64,000 nt of DNA from Podarcis gaigeae (Eukaryota), in the NCBI GenBank assembly GCA_964106915.2, contig OZ066914.1. One strand, 5' to 3'. The notes below the pieces were generated by a model, which worked only from the letters and a program-made list of their open reading frames with translations, was not told where the DNA came from and made no database searches. Positions 8,331 through 64,000 of the stretch are shown here, piece after piece. How positions within the stretch are numbered: the first letter of the stretch is position 1; each line of letters starts with the position of its first letter. Both the position numbers and the translations under genes were made by a program.

Positions 8331-9834
8331 AGTTTTTAGGTGACCACCTGGAACCAGGCTTTTATGTATGAGAAAGAGTTCACAGTTTATGGAACAGATC
8401 ATAATGGGAAGAAATTTGCTGTGTAGCGACAGGTCCCAATGTTGTTGAAGGCAAAGAGCCCAAAGTGCAAGCTGCTGCATAATGGAAAATTGCTGGCTGC
8501 ATTTCAGTCACCTGTTGGATTGTGGCCATAGCCATTTACTATATACATGTCACTGGCAGGAATATACGGATGATTTAGAATTTCCACCTTACGACCTTTA
8601 AACTTGCCCAAATAAAAAATTAAAAAGCAGGCTGGGAATGTTGTTTTTTTCTTTAGAAAAGTGACTTCACTACTGGGCAAGGGGCAATTTTATATTTGAA
8701 AACATTTGCATCAATTGGCAATTGTGAGTGAACAATTATTCCATGACACCCCCTGCCTGAACCCGATATCTCTGTTGTAACTGAAAAAGATTCATTCTTA
8801 CATACCATTCATGTGGTTTATAATTACTTAGATATGTAATTTATTTATGGGAATATACAAGATGTTATTAATCAGGATGATTTTAGCAGATAACTCTAGT
8901 TGTGGATTGACAACAGATAGGGGTGTCTAAGGAGCACACCATTTAAAAAAGCTGGTCCCCATTTTCTTGAGAACCCAGCAGAAATCCAGGCAAAATAAAG
9001 AGAAGTTTCAAAGTAGCAGTGATTGGCAAATTATGCACGTTGCCTCTAAGTATAATTAAATCGTTGTTATTTTGCAACATTTTCTAGAACAAAAACTTAA
9101 TAGCCTAGTTGTTTTACTTCAGAAAGTATAGACTGCCGCATGCCAGCTGTTCTGTTTACTACTCAAATGCACTGGAAACAGTAGAAGGTTTGCTCTACAC
9201 TATCAATCACAGTGACACATGTGTGTGTTCTAGCCAAAATTAAACACTTTTATATCCCACTGAATTAAATAGGAAGAAGTTCAGTGCATGTTTACTCCTG
9301 CCACTTAAACCAATGGGACAGAAAAGTGCTGAGCTCAGTCTGATTCATGCTCACAACTAACAGTTAGTGCCATATATTAAAGCTTGTTCTTTTTAATCTT
9401 TCTTGTGTTGAAATAAGTATGTAAGAAATCTAAAGTCTAGGAGGTCTTATTTTATTTCTCTTTTCATCTAGTACAATCTAGTAGTGACAGAAGGGTTCAT
9501 GATTGAAGTGGCTATATTCCATTCAAACTACTCAGTGATGCCTTTGAAATACGGTTGTTCAAAGGTAACATATTTTTAGGGGCAATTTGCAACAATTACG
9601 ATGCAATCGTGATGCAAGAGCATCACGCAACAATCACCAAAAGGATAGCTTCCTATATTTTCCCTGCGGTTTCCCAAACTTGGGTCTCCAGCTGTTTTTG
9701 GACTACAATTCCATCATCCCTGACCACTGGTCCTGCTAGCAAGGGATGATGGGAGTGGTAGTCCAAAAATAGGAGGCGATCATAGTTTGGGATTAGTTTA
9801 ATAGCCACTGATTAGTTTAATAGCCTGTTGTCTT

Positions 9835-10153
9835 ATCAAACCTATCCATTCTGAAGGAAATCAGCCCTGAGTGCTCACTGGAAGGACAGATCCTGAAGCT
9901 GAGGCTCCAATACTTTGGCCACCTCATGAGAAGAGAAGACTCCCTGGAAAAGACCCTGATGTTGGTAAAGATGGAGGGAGGGCACAAGGAGAAGGGGACG
10001 ACAGAGGACGAGATGGTTGGACAGTGTTCTCGAAGCTACAAACATGAATTTGACCAAACTGCGGGAGGCAGTAGAAGACAGGAGTGCCTGGTGTGCTCTG
10101 GTCCATGGGGTCACGAAGAGTCGGACACGACTAAACGACTAAACAACAACAAC
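9835..10153 (+). mobile_element. BovB (RTE) LINE, 5'-truncated 3' end
   Basis: Diagnostic 'gaagctgaggctccaatactttggccacctcatg', 'gaaaagaccctgatg' and 'gagtcggacacgact' with (CAA)n tail; 17-bp TSD AGTTTAATAGCCACTGA (9795-9811 / 10154-10170). Confidence 0.92.
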
Positions 10154-13955: not shown

Positions 13956-14860
<905 letters not shown>

Positions 14861-17774: not shown

Positions 17775-18021
17775 TGTTATGTACTGAAGTTCTCACCCTG
17801 GGCCAGCAGGGGGATACTGTAAATAGTTATGCAAATAAGGGATCGAAAGTGACGTTCAGTGATTGGATAGTTTTAGAAAGTTGTTACAGTAACGTTGTAC
17901 TGGAGCTCTATATAAGCAGGCTGACTGAACCCTTCAGTTCAGTTCTGTGCTGGCTTGTGAATAAACAAGAGCTGTTTGAAGAATCGCTGTGTCGTCTGAT
18001 ATGTTCACCCACAACTTAACA
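17775..18021 (+). mobile_element. Solo LTR, 247 bp (family A, copy 2)
   Basis: Highly similar to 14147-14388; TGTT...AACA termini; its own 5-bp TSD GTGAG (17770-17774 / 18022-18026). Confidence 0.9.
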
Positions 18022-39237: not shown

Positions 39238-39405
39238 GTTACAGATAGGTAGCCGTGTTGGTCTGCCATAGTCAAAACAAAAAAAAATTCCTTCCAGTAG
39301 CACCTTAAAGACCAACTAAGTCAGTTCTTGGTATGAGCTTTCGTGTGCATGCACACTTCATGCACACGAAAGTTCATACCAAGAACTGACTTAGTTGGTC
39401 TTTAA
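39238..39405 (-). mobile_element. Penelope-like element (PLE) terminal fragment with inverted duplication
   Basis: Minus strand reads 'gtgtgcatgcacacgaaagctcatacc..gttggtctttaaggtgctac..cagaccaacacggctac', resembling reptile Penelope pLTR ends; 50-bp inverted repeat; flanked by 13-bp direct repeat GGTTCTAAACCTG (39225-39237 / 39406-39418). Confidence 0.75.
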
Positions 39406-39793
39406 GGTTCTAAACCTGTAACTACAATCGGTCATAAAGTTCATCTAGTATTTTACGTCTGACGGTATTTCCAGAAAAAGCAAATGTATGTGGATTTCAG
39501 AGTTCCAATTTTTTAAAAGGCTTTACAACAATTCCCTAAAACTGTGTTTTCCTTCCAGGCTGTGTTTTCTCTTAACTCACATAGTAGCCATGGATTAACA
39601 AGACTCCATTAAACGGTGAGTGTGTGAGAGGAAAGATATCTATAATCAGCTGATGCCACATGGAAATATATGTTCATTGTTACTTCCACGGCAAAACTCT
39701 CTCTCAAAAGCTCTGAGTTCTTAAAAATCAGACTTTAATTCCCTGTAAAGAGCTCTGATATATCTTCCAGAATGCGCAATTGATATACCAAAG

Positions 39794-39856: not shown

Positions 39857-42180
39857 TATTTATTCATTTATTAATCGTTTCACATATAATATATTGGAAG
39901 CAATTTGACAGTTTAAAAAATAACACACACAACCCCCCCAAAAATGTTACACAATTTCATATATAAAGACAATTATAACTTCTTCTTTTAAAAAAGCTCC
40001 AACTTGGCATTTAAAAACAACTTCAAACCCAACACAGATAGAGTGGGATAAAGAGGTCGACTTTAAAAGGTTTCTTGAAACTAGAAAAGAGTTTTCAACA
40101 AGTAGCAATGGAAAAAGCTGCTCTTGCAAACTAGCACCTCAATAGGTACCATTTAAGATGTACCCAGTTTCAACTCCGTTATCCTCCCTCCTCAAAACCA
40201 ACAACTGTTCTTCCAGCTGAAAACTGGCCATGTTCCCCACCCCCATCCCAGCAGCAGATAACCTCCTCCACCCATTCAGCCTCCATCCTCTAAACTGAGC
40301 TTGCCAACAATGGTTTTTGTAACACAGATGCTCCACTTCAGTCATTATACTGAGATCACTATGTCATATCACGTTGGCCATGAGAAGCAGCCTGCCAATG
40401 GCAAGAACAATTTACCCCTATTGGTCTGTGCTGGATTGCAATCTGTCACATCCAAAAGTTCTGGCCAGAGCCCTTCCTTACAGGGTCAGGACCACGTGAA
40501 TTAAGGGTGTCTCTTCACTGAATTCACATTTTCTGTTTTTTCTTCTTCAACAAGAACATGAAAGGCCAGGTAATAAACAAGTAACAAGTGCAACGTAGTT
40601 TGCTACTTTTATTAATGGAAATGACAATTGAGACATAACGTTTGTTTTGCTTTTTAAAAATCAATCTGAAATATGTTGTTTACTCATTTTATTCCATTTT
40701 AATCCTGCATCCTGATTTCATGGAGCTCAGGGCCACATACACAGATCTTCCTCACCTCCAGTTTGATCCTAATAGTAACCCTTTGAGGTAGGCTACGCTA
40801 ACAGAGGTGCGCAGTAAAGGTATGAACCTGAATTTGATCCTCAGCTGACACTCTAACCACTGTACCACAATGACCCCTCTTAATGTATGACTGCTTTTTT
40901 ATGGGGACGGCTTTCATTGCATTGCATTGCAGTGCACTGCCTAACAATACAAGGCTTATTTTTCCCACTGAAAAGCTTAGAGCAGAATTACAGTTATGAG
41001 GGAATGGATGAAAGGACACTGTAGGAGACATAAAAACACTCGGAATATTATTTTTATAGAGGTACAAATCTTGTCTCCCTATACCTGATCTCCCCCTGCC
41101 TGTCTTACCAGGGCACTATAAAATTCATGAACTCAGTTACATATGCTGTGGGGGATTATACAAGAATTATATTCATTAACAATTAGCTCTGACCCTTATT
41201 TCCCCCCCCCCCCGTTCTTTGTTTACTTTAAAATATATATCTCACGTACTATTTGAAAAAAATATTTTTCATGATTACATGATGGCAGAATTAACCGTTT
41301 AACCATTAACGCACCCTCAGTTGCAGTTGCCTCACAAGACGGCTTAACACTGCCCCCTGTAGATTTTGCAAAGGAAATCTTTCCCTTCTGTGCCAATTCA
41401 TAGTTGAAAGATAGCAGCGATGTTCTTCCCTTCAATATTCTGGCCTCATTTTACACTCTCTTTCCAGAGCAGTATGGCCTGAGACCTTTTTTGTATTTGC
41501 CCAGGTACCATGCTTGCAGTATTATCTCCCTTTTAAAAGCAGACATGCAATAGTGAGGCCTCCACCCACATTTTAAGCTAAGATAGGGGTGGTAATAATA
41601 CACACGGTTGCAGTTCACAGTCCACGTGCCACTTGCGTATTTTGTGTTCAGGTGTTCACATTAAAATACAAAAAAGCCCGTAGAAACTGGCCGTAGTGTA
41701 TTTGGATTAGGCTCTTGAGGCAAAATAATTTCAGACCTTGCATTCACCCTCATTGTTTCTCACACTGAAGAGAAGAGGGCTACAGCTGGGGCAGCAATAT
41801 TCTTAGATACCCATTTAAAATCTCTAGAAGTGGTGTGTATATTATGTGCGTTCTCATCCTCCTCTCATGCAAACCATTAAAAGCACAGGTTTTGCTGGCC
41901 AGTGTGTGAAAATAGGTGCAAATGTTATACAATATGCAACTCTGTTTCAGAACAACAATAACAATAAAAAACCCAAGTGAACTATTTATCCGTTTTTCAA
42001 GTTTCATCATCCTTGGGTGTATCTTGGAGACAACAGTACAACTTCTTAGAGCAGTACAACTTCTGGTGAGATGGAGGGGAGGATTACATTTTTAAAAAAT
42101 CATGAAAAACAAACCTTGCTTGTAGAAAACTAGTACATCAGGGTGGGGTAGGAGTGTTCTAACCTACATTCGCCCTTATA

Positions 42181-42422
42181 CAGTGGTACCTCGGGTAACA
42201 TACACTTCAGGTTACATACACTTCAGGTTACAGACTCTGCTAACCCGGAAATAGTGCTTCAGGTTAAGAACTTCGCTTCAGGATGAGAACAGAAATCGTG
42301 CTCCGGTGGCGCAGCGGCAGTGGGAAGCCCCATTAGCTAAAGTGGTACTTCAGGCTAAGAACAGTTTCAGGTTAAGTACAGACCTCGGGAACAAATTAAG
42401 TACTTAACCCGAGGTACCACTG
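42181..42422 (+). mobile_element. Tc1/mariner (Tigger-like) MITE, family B
   Basis: TIR CAGTGGTACCTCGGG / CCCGAGGTACCACTG; TA TSD; near-identical to 47606-47847. Confidence 0.9.
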
Positions 42423-42919
42423 TATACTAGTTTACTAGTTGAAGGGAGGCTTTTTTTTTCATGAGTGAGCATTCAAGATTGTGACATACACCTGAAATCT
42501 AAAGTACTACAATTCCAGAAGAACTCTATCTCATGATTTTTCTACATGCTCAGAGTAGCCCTTGGTGAATAATGCCAATATTAGGAGTGAAATGCCCATT
42601 TTTCAGGTTCCTGAAAACGAAACACCTTCATTCAAGCCTTCAAATAAGCACATTTATTTACAAATACAATTTACAATGCAATCCTAAACATGCCTACTCA
42701 TCAGTAAGTCCCATTGAGTTCAACAGCACCAGCTGCCAGGAAAATGGGCATAAGATTGCAGCTTTAGTCAACTAACAAGTTAATTAACAGACAGCTAATT
42801 GATTAAGACATCATATGTAAGTTATAGAAATGTCACAATAAATATCAGCACACTTGGCAGCAGAGAAAGAAGCTCACTGCTATTACTTAGGCATTTTGCC
42901 AAGATGGGATGGAGAAAGC

Positions 42920-45568: not shown

Positions 45569-45923
45569 AAGGTAAAGGTACCCCTGCCCGTACGGGCCAG
45601 TCTTGACAGACTCTGGGGTTGTGCGCCCATCTCACTTAAGAGGCCAGGGGCCAGCGCTGTCCGAAGACACTTCCGGGTCACGTGGCCAGCGTGACATCGC
45701 TGCTCTGGCGAGCCAGAGCCGCACACGGAAACGCCGTTTACCTTCCCGCTGGTAAGCGGTCCCGATTTATCTACTTGCACCCGGAGGTGCTTTCGAACTG
45801 CTAGGTTGGCAGGCGCTGGGACCGAGCAGCGGGAGCGCACCCCGCCGCAGGGATTCGAACCGCCGACCTTTCGATCGGCAAGTCCTAGGCGCTGAGGCTT
45901 TAACCCACAGCGCCACCTGCGTC
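45569..45923 (-). mobile_element. Sauria SINE, near full length, CpG-rich (young)
   Basis: Minus strand has a tRNA-like head (GACGCAGGTGGCGCTGTGGGTTAAAGCC; B box GGTTCGAATCC) and a (TACCTT)n tail. Confidence 0.9.
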
Positions 45924-46872: not shown

Positions 46873-47605
46873 TCATTAGAAAGCTAGTACTTAAGGCAAA
46901 AAAAAAATTAAACAGCAAGCACATTTTTGTAAAAAGGCTATCCATACTCCAATATTGAATTGTCCATGAATGGGGAGAGAATGGGAAAGAAGTCTGTAGT
47001 TGCTCATTTGTTGCAGGGAAGAAAATAAGAGTTTGGAGAGGAGTGGAGGCCTGATGCTAACACCATGGCTACTTTTGTTGAACTAGAGAGCAGTGCAGAG
47101 TTTGGACAGAATCTCATAATCCATAAGAAATACATTGATACTATGTCAAAGCCTGACCTACAATTTTTCTTTTTCTTTTTCCTCTTCCAAGAGAAACTTC
47201 CATTTTCCTGCCTCACTCAGGGCACTTGAAATTTTCTTTAGAATTTCTGTAGATTTTGAGCTCACCTTACTCTTGTCAGACTGAAGAAATGTTTCCCCAC
47301 CCCTGCTGTAAACGTTTTTGTAGCAACCTGCAGCCGACCTACACTTCCTGATCTGAAAAACCTCTATGGGAGGAGTAACTTCCTGACGCTTTCATCCTGG
47401 TCCTGGGCTTAACAGCAAGGCGGCAGAGTGCAGAGCACCAGTGAGATGGTTTGTGGTATGAAAGAAAGGACATTCACAAACACACCTCAGCCACCTCACA
47501 AAAGTAAGGTAAGTGCAACAGAAAAACCTATCCACCCCTCCCATGAGAATTCCATATTGGCTTTCTACCAAATTGAAGGACAGAGCAGGAACTCGGGACC
47601 ATGTA

Positions 47606-47847
47606 CAGTGGTACCTCGGGTTACAGACGCTTCAGGTTACAGACGCTTCAGGTTACAGACTCCACTAACCCAGAAATAGTACCTTGGGTTAAGAATTTTG
47701 CTTCAGGATGAGAACAGAAATTATGCTCTGGTGGCGTGGCAGCAGCAGGAGGCCCCATTAGCTAAAGTGGTACCTCAGGTTAAGAACAGTTTCAGGTTGA
47801 GAACGGACGTCCAGAACAAATTAAGTTCTTAACCCGAGGTACCACTG
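47606..47847 (+). mobile_element. Tc1/mariner (Tigger-like) MITE, family B
   Basis: TIR CAGTGGTACCTCGGGTTA / TAACCCGAGGTACCACTG; TA TSD. Confidence 0.9.
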
Positions 47848-49239
47848 TATTAAGCTTTTCAACAGCAGTCGTAAGACTTTAAAACATTAAAAATGATTCC
47901 ATGTACTGGTATTTTGTTTTCATCAATGTCCACACAAGTACAAATTCATCTTGCAGCACTTCTCCCACCCGACCCTAGCAAACCCCTTCCATATCTGAGA
48001 TGCAGGTAACACACAGGCTGTGCAGTTGCAGCATTTGACATGCTATTGCCAATTCAACCAGCTGCAACAGCTCCTCTCTGGGAGCCATAAGCCCACCACA
48101 CATTGGGCCAACATGAAGCTACTGTTTCCGCTCATCAGTCACAGCTGCATGACCGACCATATAGCAAACAGCCATGGTTGTGGGCTGCTACCTGTGCAAT
48201 GTAGAAACAGAAAATCCCACAATTTCATGCAGTAGCTTTGTGGTAAATTAAGACTTAGCATTTAAAATAGTCATCACATTCAATCAGTGTGTGCGCATTA
48301 TGCCCCAATCCTGCCATCTTTCTGCTATTATTTGTGCAGAATATAAGAATTACTGTGCATGTCAAACAGTAGATATCCTTTTCCCCCCAATTCTGAACTG
48401 GATTTCCTGAAAGAGCTCTGAACAATGCAATAATATTTGTACTTTTTAAGAAAACAAGACGCACAAACAGGATACTTGTGCATGTGTGTTTGTGTGTGCC
48501 AGGAAAAGCTGAAATTGTTAATTTGAAACATGCAGCCCCATATTCCCATAATAATTGTTTAATTGTATAACCTCAACTATTTGACAGAAATATTTTTCCC
48601 AAAGCCATCTCCCCCAGAGAACAATTGTTTTCTAGATACATGTTTGCATAATTGGTGTCCACATTGTTAGATGTCCTTCTGCATGCAATAGTGTCTTCTA
48701 CTTACGAAAGGACTGTTTTACACTTTTTGCTAGAGTGCTCAATACAAAAGTGAAACTAAAACTAGAAATATTCTTCCGCTTCCATAAGTTTGTAAAAATT
48801 ATTGCAAAATGGAAGCATGAGGACAGTAATGGAACGTACATATTTCAGCGCTACGTGAACTCTTGCACAAGTTCGCATTTACAAAACAAAAAGCACTAGC
48901 AGCTCTTTTCCTTCTTCTAATGGCTTTTTGGATCCTGTTTAATGCGTATTAATTTTAAAGATTTCTAAACAAAGAGGACATTGATTTGCTTAAAAGTGCA
49001 AACATGCATCCATGTTACTAAATAAAACAAAAATGAAGGTGTCTAGAAAGCAACATTTATAGATCATAACACAAATAAAATGGGCAGCATCAATAATGGT
49101 TTCACGTCAAGGTAAAACCACATCTCAGATATCTGAATTTGGTTGTTGCTCCTCCCCCTCAAGAAAGTGGGCTATGAAGACCCTTTATGAATTCAACAGC
49201 TGATAGAGCAGCTATTAACTGTTGAGCCAAGTAGGAAAC

Positions 49240-51768: not shown

Positions 51769-52139
51769 AAAAGGTAGAGGTAAAGGACCCCTGACAGTTA
51801 AGTCCAGCCGCAGACGACTCTGGAGTTGCAGCGCTCATCTCGCTTTACAGGCCGAGGGAGCCGGCATTTGTCCGCAGACAGTTTTTCTGGGTCATGTGGT
51901 CAGCATGACTAAGCCGCTTCTGGCACAACAGAACAGTGAAACCAGAGCAGCGCATGTAAATGCTATTTACCTTCCCGCCAGAGCAGTACCTATTTATCTA
52001 CTTGCACTTTTTGACGTGCTTTCAAACTGCTAAGTTGGCAGGAGCTGGGAGCTCATACCGTCGCGGGGATTCGAACCGCCGACCTTCTGATCTGCAATCC
52101 CAAAAGGCTCAGTGGTTTAGACCACAGTGCCACCCGCGT
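51769..52139 (-). mobile_element. Sauria SINE (second subfamily)
   Basis: Head ACGCGGGTGGCACTGTGGTCTAAACC, B box GGTTCGAATCC, core 'aagtgcaagtagataaataggtac', (TACCT)n tail. Confidence 0.9.
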
Positions 52140-52865
52140 ATTTACTGTATCTTAAATGTTTTCTCTGAAGTAGTTCTCTATATTATATCCCCACCCCACA
52201 TAAAAAAGACTTCCTGTGAACAAGGGACAACCAGTAAATGAAAAGGGTAGCACCAATAAAAGTGAAAGACACACACACACTGTGACAAAAAGAATACAAT
52301 ATTTGGTTGCTTTTTTTAAAAAAAAAACCACCTGCTATTTTTAAAAGAGATAGGAAGCAGTGTGCGTAAGTAATCCAAGGCTGTGTTACTAGTAAAACAG
52401 GTTTGTCAGAAATGACACAATGCAGCTGATTTCAGGGCTCCAGCAAACTATTATTCTGCTTTGTGCTGTATTTCATTGTACAATTATTTCAAAGCAAGTG
52501 AGGTCAAAAGTGCTTTCCTACTTGAACATTTAATTATCTTGACGGCTATTTGTAAACAGCTTTTCAAAATGCCATCATTATATAGTGGTGGTTTAAGTAA
52601 AATATCCCCCAGATCTTCCTTGCACAAAAGGGTATTATCTCAATTAGAACATTAAGCAGAAGCCACAGCCCAGCGATTATAACCCCTGCACCACCTCTGA
52701 GAGGCTGCATATTTCTGGAGTTTTTTCCAGATTTATGGCCAATGCACATTTGAACATCACACAAATCAAGAGGGTGGATGTTATGTCCAGCAAGAACATG
52801 CAGCTGCAAGATCTGCAGACCATGCAATTAACTTGAGGATCATGTTGTTTGGTTAAAAGTTCTGC

Positions 52866-52929
52866 GTTAGCAGAGTCTGTAACCTGAAGCGTATGTAACC
52901 TGAAGCATATGTAACCCGAGGTACCACTG
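52866..52929 (-). mobile_element. Truncated mariner MITE (family B), one TIR
   Basis: Reverse complement of the family B left end: ...GTAACCCGAGGTACCACTG|TA. Confidence 0.8.
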
Positions 52930-55084
52930 TACACATTACTTGTTCCTAGTGTATTTGCGGCAGATAAGAAGTACTCAGAAAGTGATTTATTTAAAAATGC
53001 TTTTTTACATCTGTGAACACCTTTGGTCAAGGCTGCATCAATTGCTAACAAATGTAAGCAAACTTCTAGGTTTTTGAAGACATTTTATTTATGTATAAGA
53101 TTCTCCATTTTCCTGTAGATTCAAAATATTGCTCGTGTCCATTCAAATACCAGCTGAGGGGCACTTAAAGGATTCTTGAAATGAAAAATGTACCCATATG
53201 AAATTGCTATTTAGTAGTACAGGCAGAAGAGCAAACGATGTTGCTTTGGCATATATATAAAACAAGGTAACATCTGTCACTCTGCTTCATAATATACACA
53301 ATGACCAATTTGTCCAACTTCAATATGTGTGATTATGACAGGGAACAAACATCAGTTTCTGTACCCAATACTACTAGACAAGCAGTACACAACAGTGTGA
53401 ATGCCTACACTAGGAGAATACTTGTGAAAGCCTAATATTCATTCTGCTCTGTATCCAACGACATACTGAGAACCTGCTTAGTGTCTGCAAAGTGCTGCAT
53501 GGTCCTCTGGTGAAAAACAAAAGCTAAGCTTTGGTGTCTTTATGACATCACTTACAAATGGGGGTCAAGTACTATTCTCCGATTTCTGGACGGAGAGTAC
53601 AGCCTTGTCTGGGGTTCATTCATATTGCATGGTGCATAAGCAGCATCTTAGACACCAGGGCAGTTCAGCTGCTCATCAATTAAAAAGGTAGGCACGGTTA
53701 AGTCTCTTTCCCACATTTTATAAAGTGCCATACATATATGCAACACTGTTTTTAAATGCGGAATAGATAATAGCGCTGAAGCAAAACACTTCACAAAAGT
53801 TATTTTCCACAGGCTGACCCCACACAATTTGCTAGCATGTTTTATTATAACCACTCCCTCTTCTACCTTTTACTTCTAGTAAAAGGCAAAAATGGCACAA
53901 AGGTTTCAGCGGTCACAGAAAGAAGTGAACTTCGCTAAATGCAGGTTGGACAATGGCAGCACATTCAAACCTGATTATGTCTTACAACAAGAGCCAAGTC
54001 TGAACACAAAAGGCAAGTTAACTGCCCACATGTGATGGCCAAATTCAGCCTATACTAAAAGTCTGAAATAATAAGAAACTTCTAGTGTCATTCTACTACA
54101 GAAAACTTGCACCTGTGCAAACAAATTCTACTCTCCCCCCCCCCCCAGGATACATGTAGAGGAGGAGAAAACCAACATATTGAGCAATTGCCAAATGGAA
54201 AGCTATCATGGTGGGGAAGCGAAACTCGATGAAAGAAGGGAGGGAGCTAACAAAGGGATCCAAGGAGAAAATAATTTGCGAACCTAAAATGCATTTTCAC
54301 AAAATCACAGGATTGGGTGTTTCTGAGGGGGAGAGTGGGGAGCGGTGGTGCTGAACTCTTCCCCTGTTAGCCATGTTCCTCCTCCAAGTCATATATCAGC
54401 TACTTTTCATCCCACGGGGGATAGTGAATGCTGTGACATCTGCCTGAGTATTAAATATTGTACCTTCACCTAGGGCTAGCCCAAGGTATTTTGCTGCTTG
54501 AGGCAAAACAGAAAAGGATGTCCCACTGCCACCAATACCGCCTAAGGCAATTAGAGGCAGCCCAGGGAAGCTCTGGCACACTGAAGGTGGCATGGGGGGA
54601 AAAAGGCCAGAGAGGAGTAGGTGGGGGAGCAGTGGCAGTGGTGGCAGCCCCACACACTTCCTAGGCAGTGCCAAGCAGTGTGCTCCTCATGGGCCTTCTG
54701 AGAAGTGGAGGAAGAGGAAGAGGCGAGTCTCAGCTAGCAGGCAAGCAGGTGTCTCCAAGGTGGTGGTGGCTCCTATCAATAGCCAAAGGAGGAGGAGCGA
54801 AGGCATGCCACTGCCTCAGTGAGGCTAATGGGCCGTCTGGACCTCCCTTCAGCTGTGCTGAACCTGTTTGTTTGTAAATAAAGGCTAATATTATGAAATA
54901 GCAGTAAGCCTCCAGTGACCTCATTTCAAGGGAAACCAAACCCAGATAAGTGCTGCTCCTCTGGAGCATCACACAGAGAATTGGGGTGCACCTACTTAAC
55001 AATATAGAGACATCAACAAACCAATTACACTGGCATTCATTTATGAAACAATACTAGAATACACATCTGTGCATGTGCTAAGTT

Positions 55085-59496: not shown

Positions 59497-59835
59497 GAAA
59501 GGGCCAATGGTAGAGCATATGGCTTGTATGCAGACGGTCCCAGGTTCAATCCCCAGCATCTCCAGGTGGGGCTACGAGATATTCCGGCCTGAAACCATAG
59601 AGATTTGCTCCCAGTTAGTGTAGACACTGGTTTTTAACTGGTGAATTGGGATCCACTAGTGAGTCACAGACTGATCTAAAGTGGGTTGCAACAGGGGACA
59701 GGATCACTACCACCATGCAAATATATGGCAAAATGAATGTTTGGGTTAAAAGTGGGTTCCAGGGTCTGAAAAGATTGAAGATACCTAGTGAGCTATATGG
59801 ACCAATGGTCTGACTCAGTATAAGACAGCTTCCTA
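59497..59835 (+). mobile_element. tRNA-derived SINE (Squam3-like) with a hAT-like MITE nested at ~59625-59789
   Basis: A box 'tggtagagc', B box 'ggttcaatccc', 3' end 'ggaccaatggtctgactcagtataagacagcttcct'; interrupted after 'gtgtagac'. Confidence 0.7.
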
Positions 59836-60077
59836 GTTGCCACTACTGTGGTTTTTGTCAAGTTACCCAGCAATCTGTAGTAACAATCCATTTCATAACT
59901 TAGATGGTCCTGTACAGAGACTTTATTGGTTTCATGGTTCTACAGAGTAGCCCAAAGTTATACCTGATCCCCTTTTTCAAACACTGGTACTATACTTCCC
60001 CACACCATCAGTTACCATAGCATGTTTCTGCTGTAAGACCAATATATTTTTGTGCCTGAAATGGTCACTCCAAATGG

Positions 60078-61773
60078 GACTTCCGGGTCGGCGCCATCGC
60101 CGAATGGCGGACTCCCTCCGAGCTCCGGAGGGAGCCTGCTTGGCAGGGGCTGGGTCCTACCGCACCGGCGATGCGGGGACCCTTAAAAACCACGGCCAGA
60201 GGAGGCCGTGGACATGGAGACTCGGCTGGCACCGTTAGCGCCCTCCCGACTCGTGAAGGAGCCTTTTTAAAGGCTACGGATCGGGTGCCGGGGAGAAGCG
60301 TGGTGCTTTGAGTTCTCTGCTATCCCTGCCGAGCGCAGCCGCATGCCATCCGGCGGAGAGCGCTGACTTCTTCTATTGAAAATTTGGATCTAAAGAAGAA
60401 CCCGTGAGTAATTGGAATATGGACTAAAAAAAAAAAGGGATAAATTTTTAAAATTTGGAGCGAACGGGGGAGGCGGAAAAAAGGAAGTCAGCCCACCCCT
60501 AAATTGTAGAAGAGCCAAAACAAAGGACTGGACAACTAAGATCGAGTGTAACCTTATTTTGCCGAATTAGCAACTTCGCGAGGGAAAATTATAAGATTGA
60601 GCTGGAGGAGGAAAGTGGAATTGTTTTAAAAAAGCAACCCCCCCCCCCCCGGAATCCCTGGAGCGATTCGTGAAACTGCCTGGAGAAGAGCAATGGAGGT
60701 TTTGACAGCTGTCAAAGAGCTGTCAAAAAGAAAGATTAAAATAGAGACTTTGTTACGAGGACTTTGCCGGTTACATTTGTTATAAATTGAACATAAACTG
60801 CTTCAAATATGGACTAACAAGTTACTTGGATTGGTGGATGTGATTCTGGAAGGGAACTTTGTTACTGTAATCCATCTAGAGGAGCTGAGGGATATTGCAT
60901 GTGTTTTTGAGGAAACTTGAACAGTTGAATGGAACTTTTAATCTCCTGGGAAACTGCAGGAATGGAACATTATTTTGTCTACAGAGGTTTACACACTACA
61001 GGAAACAATGGAACTATTTGTTGAAAAATGAAAGGAACATGATGCAATGCTTTGCTCCTGAATAACAAGCCTCTGCAGAGACACTAGAACTTTTGGAAAA
61101 AGAACATTTCTGTGGGAGAACAGAGAAACAAAAAGGAGGAGAATGATTGACAAGAACAAGGAAACAACAAGAACTGGACAGAACTGGGAGAGGGAACATT
61201 TGGGATATCCAGGCTTGACAAGCTTATGGAAACAAAATTGGAGTTCTTACTCCTGGATATAAAAACCTGGATAGAAGAAATGGGCCCCTTTTTTGATAGA
61301 CTCCTTCTATGATTGGACACTCGTAATTAAAGACTGGCAAAGAACCAGAGGGACGTGGGCATAATGTAATATGGGAACTCCAGGAAGATACTAGAAGTAG
61401 AGGGATAGGTGAAACGCAAAGGGGAAAGAGGGGAGGGAAAGTTGGAATCCAAAGGTTGTAAAATCACTACTCATATTTATTTTATTTCCATCTGTACTAT
61501 GTTTGAAAGGGGGGAACTCGTGGAAGGGAATAGATCGATCTTAGGGGATGGGAATTTGGATAAATTGGGTTACTGATGATGAGTGTAATTTGGGGATAAG
61601 AACTTGTTGAATTTAATTGCTTATTTGGAAGATTTGGAACACAAGAGGGGGTAGGGAGGGGAAGTCCTGGTTATTGGCAAAAAGTTTATAAATTGGATTT
61701 AATTTGTTTTAATTTGTTTTAATTTGGAAAACCTTAATAAAAATTATTATAAAAAAATAAAAATAAAAAAAAA
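60078..61773 (+). mobile_element. Full-length non-autonomous poly(A) retroelement (L1-dependent, HAL1-like), non-coding
   Basis: 21-bp TSD TGAAATGGTCACTCCAAATGG (60057-60077 / 61774-61794); CpG-rich 5' leader starting GACTTCCGG; G-rich 3' tract; AATAAA at 61736 and an A-rich tail; no plus-strand ORF of 60 aa or more beyond the leader. Confidence 0.85.
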
Positions 61774-64000
61774 TGAAATGGTCACTCCAAATGGCTCCCC
61801 TCTCTATTAAAGAAAAAACCCATGGTAAAATCAGCTGACAATTTCTGTCTCTTTTCAAAGCTCAGCATCTGCTGACAGAGACAGGTTTCCCCTCTTCTAA
61901 CTCAAGACAGAGGTAAACCTTAAGCTTTAGTTCACAATAACATAAGAAGCATCCTGCTGAATTAGAAGGAGGCTCATCTGGTCCAGTGTTCCATCTACCA
62001 GGTGCCTATGGGGGAAACCTCACTAACAGGACATTAGTACAATAGCACTCTACAGCTCACGTTTCTCAGTTCACTCACTGTTGACTTCTCAAGTGAATTC
62101 AGTGGGAATGTTTGGGACAAGAATCAACACAAACAAAACTGCCCAAGCTGCAGTGGCTTGCGAATCTCCTAATGGAATGCTTTAAGCCCATTACAACACT
62201 GTCTAGAAATGTTTCCTTTTATAAATGTGCTTATTTGTATCAATGGTATACTGCAAAAGAGTAAACTTCTTTTCCATGTGCCAGAACAGGATTCTAATGG
62301 GATTCTAATATACCATTATAACATCCCAACCTTTTTCTGAACAGAAACGTTATGCCAAAATAGAAGTCTCAGCTAATTAAAACACACACATAGCGGGAAC
62401 TTTAGCAAGATGAAATATTAATGTCTGTGGCATGTTATATCTCTATCTCCCGCTGCTATTTCTTTCTTGTTGTAAGACATGGGCAGTACAGTGCAATCAT
62501 GTATTGCTGGGGCCCAGACATGTTATGAGGCACCCTGCCAAGAGTCAACACTATTATCTTGATTCTCATGCAAGGCATGTCCCTGGGGAACTCAGAGATG
62601 GCACACAATGCCTTTGACCTTGCCAGGCCATGAGCCGAGTGTTTTAACTCTTTTTAATACTGAATTTTAAACTGTTGTAACCCACTCTGGGCCCTGCTGG
62701 AGAAGGGCAAGTAACAAATTTAACCACTACCACCATCCTACCCAGCCCACCTTGGAAAAGGGCCATAGTGCACTCTGATTTTTAATTCGCGCCTGGTGCA
62801 TTCTTACTTGGATTGCAGTCTTTTAAAAAATAATAATATTAAAGCTTTTTATAATACAAAAAACTAAAAGAAACTAATCTAAATAAAAATAAAAGCAGAG
62901 AAGAAAAAAGAAAATGCAGAGTCCTCTCTCAAAGGTAGCTATTAATTCTCGCCTCACACAGAAAGTGGTGGACCCTCCTAGCTCTCACCTAGGAGCTTTC
63001 CTTTTTCTTCTCCCAGTCTCACCCTGGGAGGTCTTCCCTTTCCTGCCTCTCACTCAGGATCTGGGTCCTTCCACTAACCATCCACCAACTTCATGTGTGT
63101 GTAATCCTTGGACCCTTGCAGTATTTTGTTACTTAAAGTAAACATCACCATGGTTTCAATGCTGCTGCTGCTACCACTACTACTAACCTTATATACAATA
63201 GGATTACAAGTATGTCGCCACACAAACTGCAGCACAGGAATAGAATAGCAGGTGGGCAGCTCATGAGGGCAGGCGAGTTAGCAAGCTGGCTGCTCAGCTG
63301 AGTGCCATGGATGGTGAGTGGCCCATGCAAACCACAGACTGAGGAATAGTCAGGACAGAGCAGGGCAGCCCCCCACAACCATCCTGCTCTGCTGTCACCG
63401 CACACCTCACACCAAGGAGACAGAAGAGGAGGGAAGCAGCAGCACAGCAGGACCACTGCTGTGGAGCTGTAACAGCTTGTCTTGCCTGTTCCGCTGCAGC
63501 AACCCCTGGGTCACAGTTGGGCTGAGCTGTAAGAGAAGCTAGTATGGCTTGGCCAAGTGGGCAGGCATATGAAGAGGGAAGTGGAAGCAGGGAGGCAGGT
63601 GGGAGCACAGAAACAAAGAGTGGAAAGTCTCTCCTTCAACCTGTCCTCCCCTCACGCTGTTGCCACTGCCACAGCAGGGGGGGGGACTACATCTCTCCGG
63701 AATGAATGCTGACCTCCCTTTAAGGCCTTTGGTGATTTTCCTTTTAGCTGCAGCTAGACTGGTTATACCACAGGATGGAAGGATGCTTCTGTTATTAATG
63801 TGAACTGCTGTTATAAGAAGGCTTTGTTCTTACCTGTCTCAGAAAAAATTAACCCATCATCTTATGGTTTTGAAGGGGAGTGCTAAACTAGTGGACTTTG
63901 CTGCCAGTTGAAGGGCTATTGTGACGCACACGAACAAATGACATATGAAACCACTTGTCCCAGTGAAGTAGTATGACTCCGTTTGACTGATTGGTCCAAA

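Follow-up and report, generated by a model that had tools for sequence, protein, structure and literature searches.

The stretch analysed here, 64,000 nucleotides (nt) of Podarcis gaigeae DNA from contig OZ066914.1 (the window), contains a 1,696-nt insert at 60078-61773, which is bounded by two matching 21-nt repeats and probably sits in intron 1 of KCNQ1. The insert belongs to a multi-copy family, real and active, of non-coding elements that open with a head of the L1 type. It was first pointed out in a preliminary description made from the letters of the window, as a parasite that is neither a short interspersed element (SINE) nor a long interspersed element (LINE). The parts of the insert and its flanking repeats, with the evidence for each in brackets, are as follows.

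60057..60077, plus strand: left copy of the target-site duplication (TSD), 21 nt long, shortened to 20 when its initial T is assigned to the tail (repeat comparison; single in empty-site contigs)
60078..60136, plus strand: L1-type 5' terminus, likely an internal RNA polymerase II (Pol II) promoter (motif positions against published L1 termini)
60078..60410, plus strand: CpG island with a predicted multi-hairpin head (CpG count, fold z-score, helices, family variants)
60404..60409, plus strand: GTGAGT, a putative splice-donor-like motif where the CpG island ends (sequence)
60411..60770, plus strand: A-rich continuation with scattered CpGs, in which A and C runs vary in length between copies (CpG positions; indels at 60426 and 60638); likely further 5' untranslated region (UTR)
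60693..60785, plus strand: 30-codon frame noted in the preliminary description, with stop TAA at 60783; no relative found in protein searches (reading of open reading frames (ORFs), protein searches)
60771..61500, plus strand: purine-rich, CpG-poor middle with many GGAA and GAAC words (composition; protein searches blank)
61501..61735, plus strand: G/T-rich 3' tract with a 10-nt tandem repeat at its end (composition; fold z +1.6); likely the 3'UTR
61736..61773, plus strand: AATAAA signal (61736) and A-rich tail (sequence)
61774..61794, plus strand: right TSD copy (repeat comparison)

Insert, target site and composition

The repeats at 60057-60077 and 61774-61794 match at 21 of 21 positions, and the empty-site contigs described below carry this sequence once; it is therefore a true target duplication, perfect over 21 bp as the preliminary description had stated. 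The insertion site given there, CT|GAAA, stands only with a 20-nt TSD, in which T61774 is the last letter of an A5T-type tail. For the 21-nt repeat, which begins at T60057, it does not hold, and the site reads GCC|TGAAA. Under the 20-nt reading the bottom-strand site is TTTC/A, as compared with the L1 target consensus TTTT/A (PMC4476161), and this comparison concerns a single site.

The composition of the insert was also described correctly. The CpG-rich 5' end is intact: the first 293 nt have 66% G+C and 29 CpG, with an observed-to-expected (o/e) ratio of 0.92 against 0.23 in 1-60056. Beyond these 293 nt, the element has 38% G+C and 61% purine, the last CpG lies at element position 691, and positions 692-1244 hold none. 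The word GAAC occurs 16 times in the middle, where 6.9 ± 2.5 occurrences are expected. The 3' tract, in which no canonical G-quadruplex pattern was found, consists of 30% G and 6% C, giving a GC skew of 0.70, and leads into the polyadenylation signal and the tail. No variable number tandem repeat (VNTR) was found in the element.

The absence of an RNA polymerase III (Pol III) promoter was borne out as well. No A or B box was found in the element with the usual patterns, nor did ARAGORN find a transfer RNA (tRNA) gene in it. Rfam gave no family at the gathering score and only three matches at chance level (E 1.1-4). The element thus does not have the head derived from tRNA, 7SL, 5S or small nuclear RNA, with a Pol III promoter, that makes a SINE. 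A self-cleaving ribozyme in the head was also considered, and was set aside as Rfam gave no match for one. The window contains one copy of the element only, and a comparison of the element with the rest of the window gave only A-rich matches of 24-48 nt.

A multi-copy, non-coding family with a young insertion

Words of the element were present in 20 of the 23 listed runs, under nine organism labels. Four runs from three studies, X1 and X3 (organism A), X4 (organism B) and X7 (organism E), were compared with the window over 59650-62350. In each of the four, one contig runs directly from 60065 to 61783, at neighbouring positions of its record, with a single copy of the target, and the insertion is therefore young, in agreement with the recent date proposed for it. 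The flanks of these empty-site contigs differ from the window at 0 positions in X1, 1 in X3 (over about 990 letters), 8 in X4 and about 14 in X7. Provided that organism A and the window belong to one species, the insertion is polymorphic in organism A; otherwise, it is younger than the split of the two. The flank-element junction was not spanned by any of the pieces listed, which are a minority of all pieces.

The summed contig depth was 242-7,197 times that of the flank in all 18 bins of the element and in every run, with medians of 4,013, 1,422, 606 and 1,425; since summed depth is not copy number, it is read only as hundreds to thousands of copies. The element is accordingly the member of a family, as had been supposed. 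The identity of the contigs to the element ranged from more than 99% to under 90%, and such a gradation points to several subfamilies or ages. The 5' third was deeper than the 3' third in all four runs. Because 5'-truncated LINEs give the reverse, many copies are likely to be full-length, or else the head is common to other families.

These results also bear on a further explanation, in which a cellular non-coding RNA gave rise to the insert as a single-copy processed pseudogene, or the flanks are a chance direct repeat. A single-copy processed pseudogene was among the outcomes that the preliminary description had listed as refuting its proposal. A processed pseudogene would be expected to show the TSD, the poly(A) signal and the tail equally well, but not the thousands of contigs with graded identity in each of the four runs. 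The existence of an empty site also speaks against this explanation, and the first base of the insert coincides with an L1 terminus motif. The run comparison refutes the single-copy pseudogene unless the depth stems from a tandem gene array, and we regard the explanation as a whole as very improbable. The lack of head-to-tail joints among those tabled speaks against such an array.

Variation within the family was followed at the 30 variant sites listed inside the element; the listing covered 40 of 151 substitution entries and 12 of 34 indel entries, and a single variant site had as many as 52 contigs. The window copy departs from the majority at 13, 13, 23 and 28 of these 30 sites in the four runs. 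As compared with X1, it differs from at least 98% of the depth at eight sites, all of them transitions, despite the youth of the insertion; it may stem from a source lineage that the X1 sample contains rarely or not at all. A structural variant that skips 126 nt (joint 61466-61593) was seen in three of the four runs, and X7 contained two further ones, a replaced stretch of 48 nt (61132-61181) and a step back of 168 nt (61318-61151). These joints suggest shorter and locally duplicated subfamilies. No RNA run was listed among those that contain the element words; six runs that were guessed to be RNA had 7-8% of them, a figure with no bearing on expression.

The family seems to be non-coding as a whole. 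The preliminary description had reported only short broken frames, and the longest stop-free stretch of the window copy is indeed 77 codons on the plus strand and 85 codons on the minus strand, the frame at 60693 having 30 codons. Even when the majority variants of each run were combined with six listed indels in 64 combinations, the longest open stretch was 87-93 codons, and therefore the family as seen is non-coding. The plus strand has 81 stops; five of the 30 variants affect one of these, and four create a stop. Pfam gave no family in any of the six frames, with stops read as X, and the reverse transcriptase and endonuclease motifs that had been reported as missing are absent in this search. 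With a length of 1.7 kb and no Pfam match, the element does not carry the ORF2 endonuclease and reverse transcriptase of an autonomous L1. Nor does it encode ORF1p, the mark of a HAL1 element, among the variants shown.

The L1-type head and the origin of the element

The element has GACTTCCGG at +1, ATGGCG at +27, GAGCTCCG at +43 and GAGGGAGCC at +51. The start with GACTTCCGG, together with ATGGCG, is common to the element and to anole clade-1 L1 (L1_AC3b, 7, 8, 11, 12, 14 and 15), and GACTTCCGG lies at the start or within 2 nt of it in seven of nine anole clade-1 families (PMC5381506). The start of these L1s is given as GACTTCCGGTG, eight free bases and ATGGCG (PMC5381506). GAGCTCCG is found about 40 nt into frog L1s (PMC5381506), and by eye GAGGGAGCC also comes after a GAGCTCCG-type motif in L1_AC3b. 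The combined head pattern had one match in the window and none in 100 shuffles; as the pattern was fitted to the element, this shows only its rarity. Judged by these motifs, the head is an L1-type 5' terminus, and a likeness to L1 is shown for the first 60 nt, at the motif level. Anole clade-1 L1s also share with the element a GAGCTC-type motif near +40, a CpG island of about 300-400 nt, AATAAA and an A-tail (PMC5381506). They differ in being 6.2-6.7 kb long, with ORF1 and ORF2 and mostly two CpG islands (PMC5381506), whereas the element has 1.7 kb, no ORF and a G-rich 3' tract.

The corresponding region of L1 is an internal promoter (PMC5381506), and Pol II transcription from +1 is therefore the likely route for the element by analogy. 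With an L1-type terminus on a non-coding family, Pol II drive and mobilisation in trans by L1, as the preliminary description had proposed, are the likely mechanism. We accordingly read the insert as a member of a non-autonomous, L1-headed and L1-mobilised family, with a probability of about 0.9.

The head is also predicted to be strongly folded. The fold of 60078-60410 has -171 kcal/mol (z -6.33), equalled by none of 100 shuffles, and that of the first 150 nt has z -4.96, where only two of 200 control stretches from the window reach -4 or below. Five variant places are listed in the head: one majority change converts a U-G pair to C-G, a hairpin loop contains the indels at 60199 and 60200, and the remaining ones are an insertion at an unpaired base and a change at an uncertain pair. 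These variants are consistent with a preserved structure, but the evidence is thin. The minus strand of the head folds too (z -5.52); the signal therefore reflects inverted repeats and does not have to operate at the RNA level. The 3' tract is unstructured (z +1.6). A 20-nt head pattern matched 120 loci in metagenome contigs, the best over 24 nt only; these matches were rejected as chance, the best of them lying in DNA of at least 56% G+C (median 71%). Where the CpG island ends, the GTGAGT at 60404-60409 is preceded by a purine-rich stretch. Most anole clade-1 L1s, as judged by eye, also contain GTAAG or GTGAG late within their first 400 nt, which may hint at a splice donor common to lizard L1 5'UTRs.

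For the origin of the family, we lean modestly towards an L1 that was reduced to its UTRs, with both ORFs lost by internal deletion. Among the outcomes that would undo its proposal, the preliminary description had named a simple internal deletion of a known L1. We regard an internal deletion of an L1 as the leading origin and as the interesting case, because deletion derivatives without ORFs have been reported from other LINE groups only (see below). In anole clade-1 L1, 5'UTRs have a mean of 1,268 nt and 45.2% G+C, and 3'UTRs of 345 nt (PMC5381506); the two together sum to 1,259-2,035 nt per family, and the element measures 1,696 nt. Its first 1,270 nt have 45.6% G+C and 43 CpG, and the last 345 nt before the signal have 36.8% G+C, the range of anole 3'UTRs being 22.5-40.2%. 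ORF1 occupies 762-1,125 nt in 12 anole L1 families, and about 1,050 nt would have to be added for a HAL1-like form that keeps ORF1. Since length and G+C of the element match the anole UTR values, loss of the ORFs by internal deletion is favoured.

Several points weigh against this interpretation. The agreement in size and G+C is circumstantial. A second CpG island, at about 560-1,050, is present in most anole clade-1 5'UTRs, whereas the element has no CpG at 692-1,244. A G-rich 3' tract is exceptional in anole L1 (only L1AC_17 and 20). GACTTCCGG also opens opossum and several zebrafish L1s (PMC5381506), and therefore marks L1 rather than clade 1, and ATGGCG follows the first 9-mer by 17 nt in the element as compared with 10 nt in the anole consensus. 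On the 20-nt reading, this single target site departs from the L1 consensus by one letter, and the 21-nt reading fits worse. The whole element is not spanned by any listed contig, and no parent L1 was found in the window, which also has no second copy. Finally, the plus strand of 60620-61500 is short of stops (40 against 59.5 ± 6.3 expected); the o/e ratio of the middle, 0.68, is lower than in all 134 control stretches, and the middle could be a coding fossil.

This stop deficit is one point in favour of an origin from a decayed HAL1, with a 5'UTR of about 615 nt, an ORF1 from 60693 that was broken in the source lineage before the family spread, and then a 3'UTR. The lengths would sum correctly, the frame at 60693 resembles by eye the start of an L1 ORF1 coiled coil, and a 2-nt insertion at 60909, common in the family, connects two open stretches. 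However, the stops fit a path through the frames no better than those of controls (P 0.12-0.21 in order-1 and 0.83-0.91 in order-2 simulations), so that the first impression of an ORF fossil was not supported. The deficit is chiefly one of TGA (18 against 30.4) and goes along with an excess of GGA, and TGA is low upstream of the ATG too; some family variants add stops. In addition to the blank Pfam search, frame 1 of 60630-61499 (stops as X) had no relative among 1.84 billion proteins. Three word searches, likewise with stops as X and each of them weak evidence, were also blank: frame 1 of 60630-60911 against longer proteins, frame 2 of 60889-61503 against proteins of near length and frame 3 of 61088-61573 against longer proteins, the latter two frames having been compared, Pfam apart, by word search only. 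The descent from a HAL1 that lost even ORF1, as the preliminary description had it, was thus not upheld, no remnant of ORF1 being detected in the frame and protein searches, and we consider a decayed HAL1 unlikely.

A chimera comparable to SVA would have arisen when the promoter head of an L1 took up a non-coding middle and 3' end of unrelated origin, the product then being spread by L1 proteins. In its favour, a likeness to L1 is shown only for the first 60 nt, and the G-rich 3' tract is unusual for anole L1. The first full bin was deepest in three of four runs, as if the head were common to other families, and the CpGs end at position 691. On the other hand, the composition shifts gradually and matches L1 UTR values, and no strong joint or loose end was found inside the element among the entries shown, which leave aside 845 loose-end entries. 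This explanation is about as doubtful as the decayed HAL1.

The TSD, the tail, the empty site, the abundance, the L1 terminus motifs and the lack of an ORF are observed, and the propagation of the family is pictured from them as follows. The CpG-island head would start Pol II transcription at +1, and AATAAA at 61736 would yield a poly(A) RNA. ORF2p of an autonomous squamate L1 would nick an A-rich site, and target-primed reverse transcription from the tail would leave the duplication of 20-21 nt. With a unit of only 1.7 kb, many copies might be completed with the promoter kept, and such promoter-bearing copies could act as new sources. L1 proteins favour their own transcript (cis preference). 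It is conceivable, though we put it forward only tentatively, that a UTR-only L1 has become an active parasite, present in related lizards in hundreds to thousands of copies, most of them full-length, and that its folded head of 330 nt overcomes the cis preference.

Related retroposons and the surrounding locus

Non-coding retroposons mobilised by LINEs are already known (SVA, Sadhu and the bipartite derivatives of RTE, Ingi, Vingi and R2), and the family is not a new class. The element is neither a SINE nor an autonomous L1 by the comparisons above, and the designation as neither SINE nor LINE has precedents in SVA and Sadhu. In its mode of action it would resemble SVA, LAVA and Sadhu, which are non-coding and mobilised by LINEs and have no Pol III head. 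In its anatomy, the element appears closest to the bipartite ORF-absent LINE derivatives, of which known examples are a few hundred nt long. RIME, NARTc, RTESINE, WALLSI3 and the Vingi derivatives likewise keep the 5' end of a LINE and are free of protein-coding sequence, and they are probably transcribed by Pol II and mobilised by their parents, as proposed for the element (PMC5786205). They differ in the head, which in the element is of L1 type at the motif level. PMC5786205 names RTE, Ingi, Vingi and R2 as the only sources of such derivatives, and does not decide whether sampling or a requirement lies behind this restriction.

HAL1, the L1 form that retains ORF1 (PMC5786205), is like the element in its L1 derivation, the lack of ORF2 and the L1-type marks of insertion (PMC5753468, PMC5786205). 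It encodes ORF1p, whereas the longest frame of our family has 93 codons, with no ORF1 remnant detected. Ape SVA and LAVA are also non-autonomous non-LTR (long terminal repeat) elements mobilised in trans by L1 (PMC3287187, PMC5174737), but they are composites of Alu-like, VNTR and other repeat parts, while the element has an L1-type head and no VNTR. Sadhu of Arabidopsis is non-coding with poly(A), has no A or B boxes and is thought to be mobilised by LINEs (PMC2848041). This plant element of about 900 nt, with TSDs of 7-18 nt, is unlike ours in its low copy number and in the lack of a LINE-like head (PMC2848041).

A literature search gave no account of such a lizard family, the papers being judged mostly by title or the start of the abstract and including few subscription papers or Repbase reports; so abundant a repeat may well figure in some de novo library, labelled as L1 or as unknown. 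If the favoured origin is true, the L1 clade would have in this UTR-only L1 its first ORF-absent bipartite derivative, whose success would settle for L1 whether the restriction of such derivatives is a matter of sampling. The family would exceed typical lizard L1 families in copies (75 and 144 in two anole examples), and would offer a natural minimal substrate for finding the RNA features that enable L1 to act in trans. Young presence/absence insertions with long TSDs also make clean population markers.

The gene in the window is one that we take to be KCNQ1, on the minus strand, its exons at 779-46800 having been identified by known motifs.

46800 (near), minus strand: KCNQ1 exon 2 (known motifs)
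about 15350, 13980, 13520, 12520 and 780, minus strand: later KCNQ1 exons (known motifs)

Exon 1 was not found within the window. Relative to KCNQ1, the element is in antisense orientation and is located on the 5' side of exon 2, at a distance of about 13 kb; the insertion would carry a predicted CpG-island promoter to this locus.

About 220 nt upstream of the insertion lies a decayed SINE-like repeat (about 59500-59835), broken in the middle, the 3' part of which (59789-59835) attracts hundreds of contigs per run. It resembles a Squam3 or MIR-type SINE, an identity that PMC7983390 did not settle. Three repeat families, 70-92% alike, have copies at 14147-14388 and 17775-18021, at 42179-42425, 47604-47850 and 52860-52933, and at 45570-45922 and 51778-52139; the last pair resembles a Sauria-type SINE. 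The frame at 9824-10150 reads like the C-terminus of a BovB/RTE reverse transcriptase. A near-perfect hairpin at 39301-39407, with arms of about 50 bp, a 7-nt loop and a fold z of -20, lies in the KCNQ1 intron after exon 2; it may represent a fold-back insertion or a small DNA element of palindromic type.

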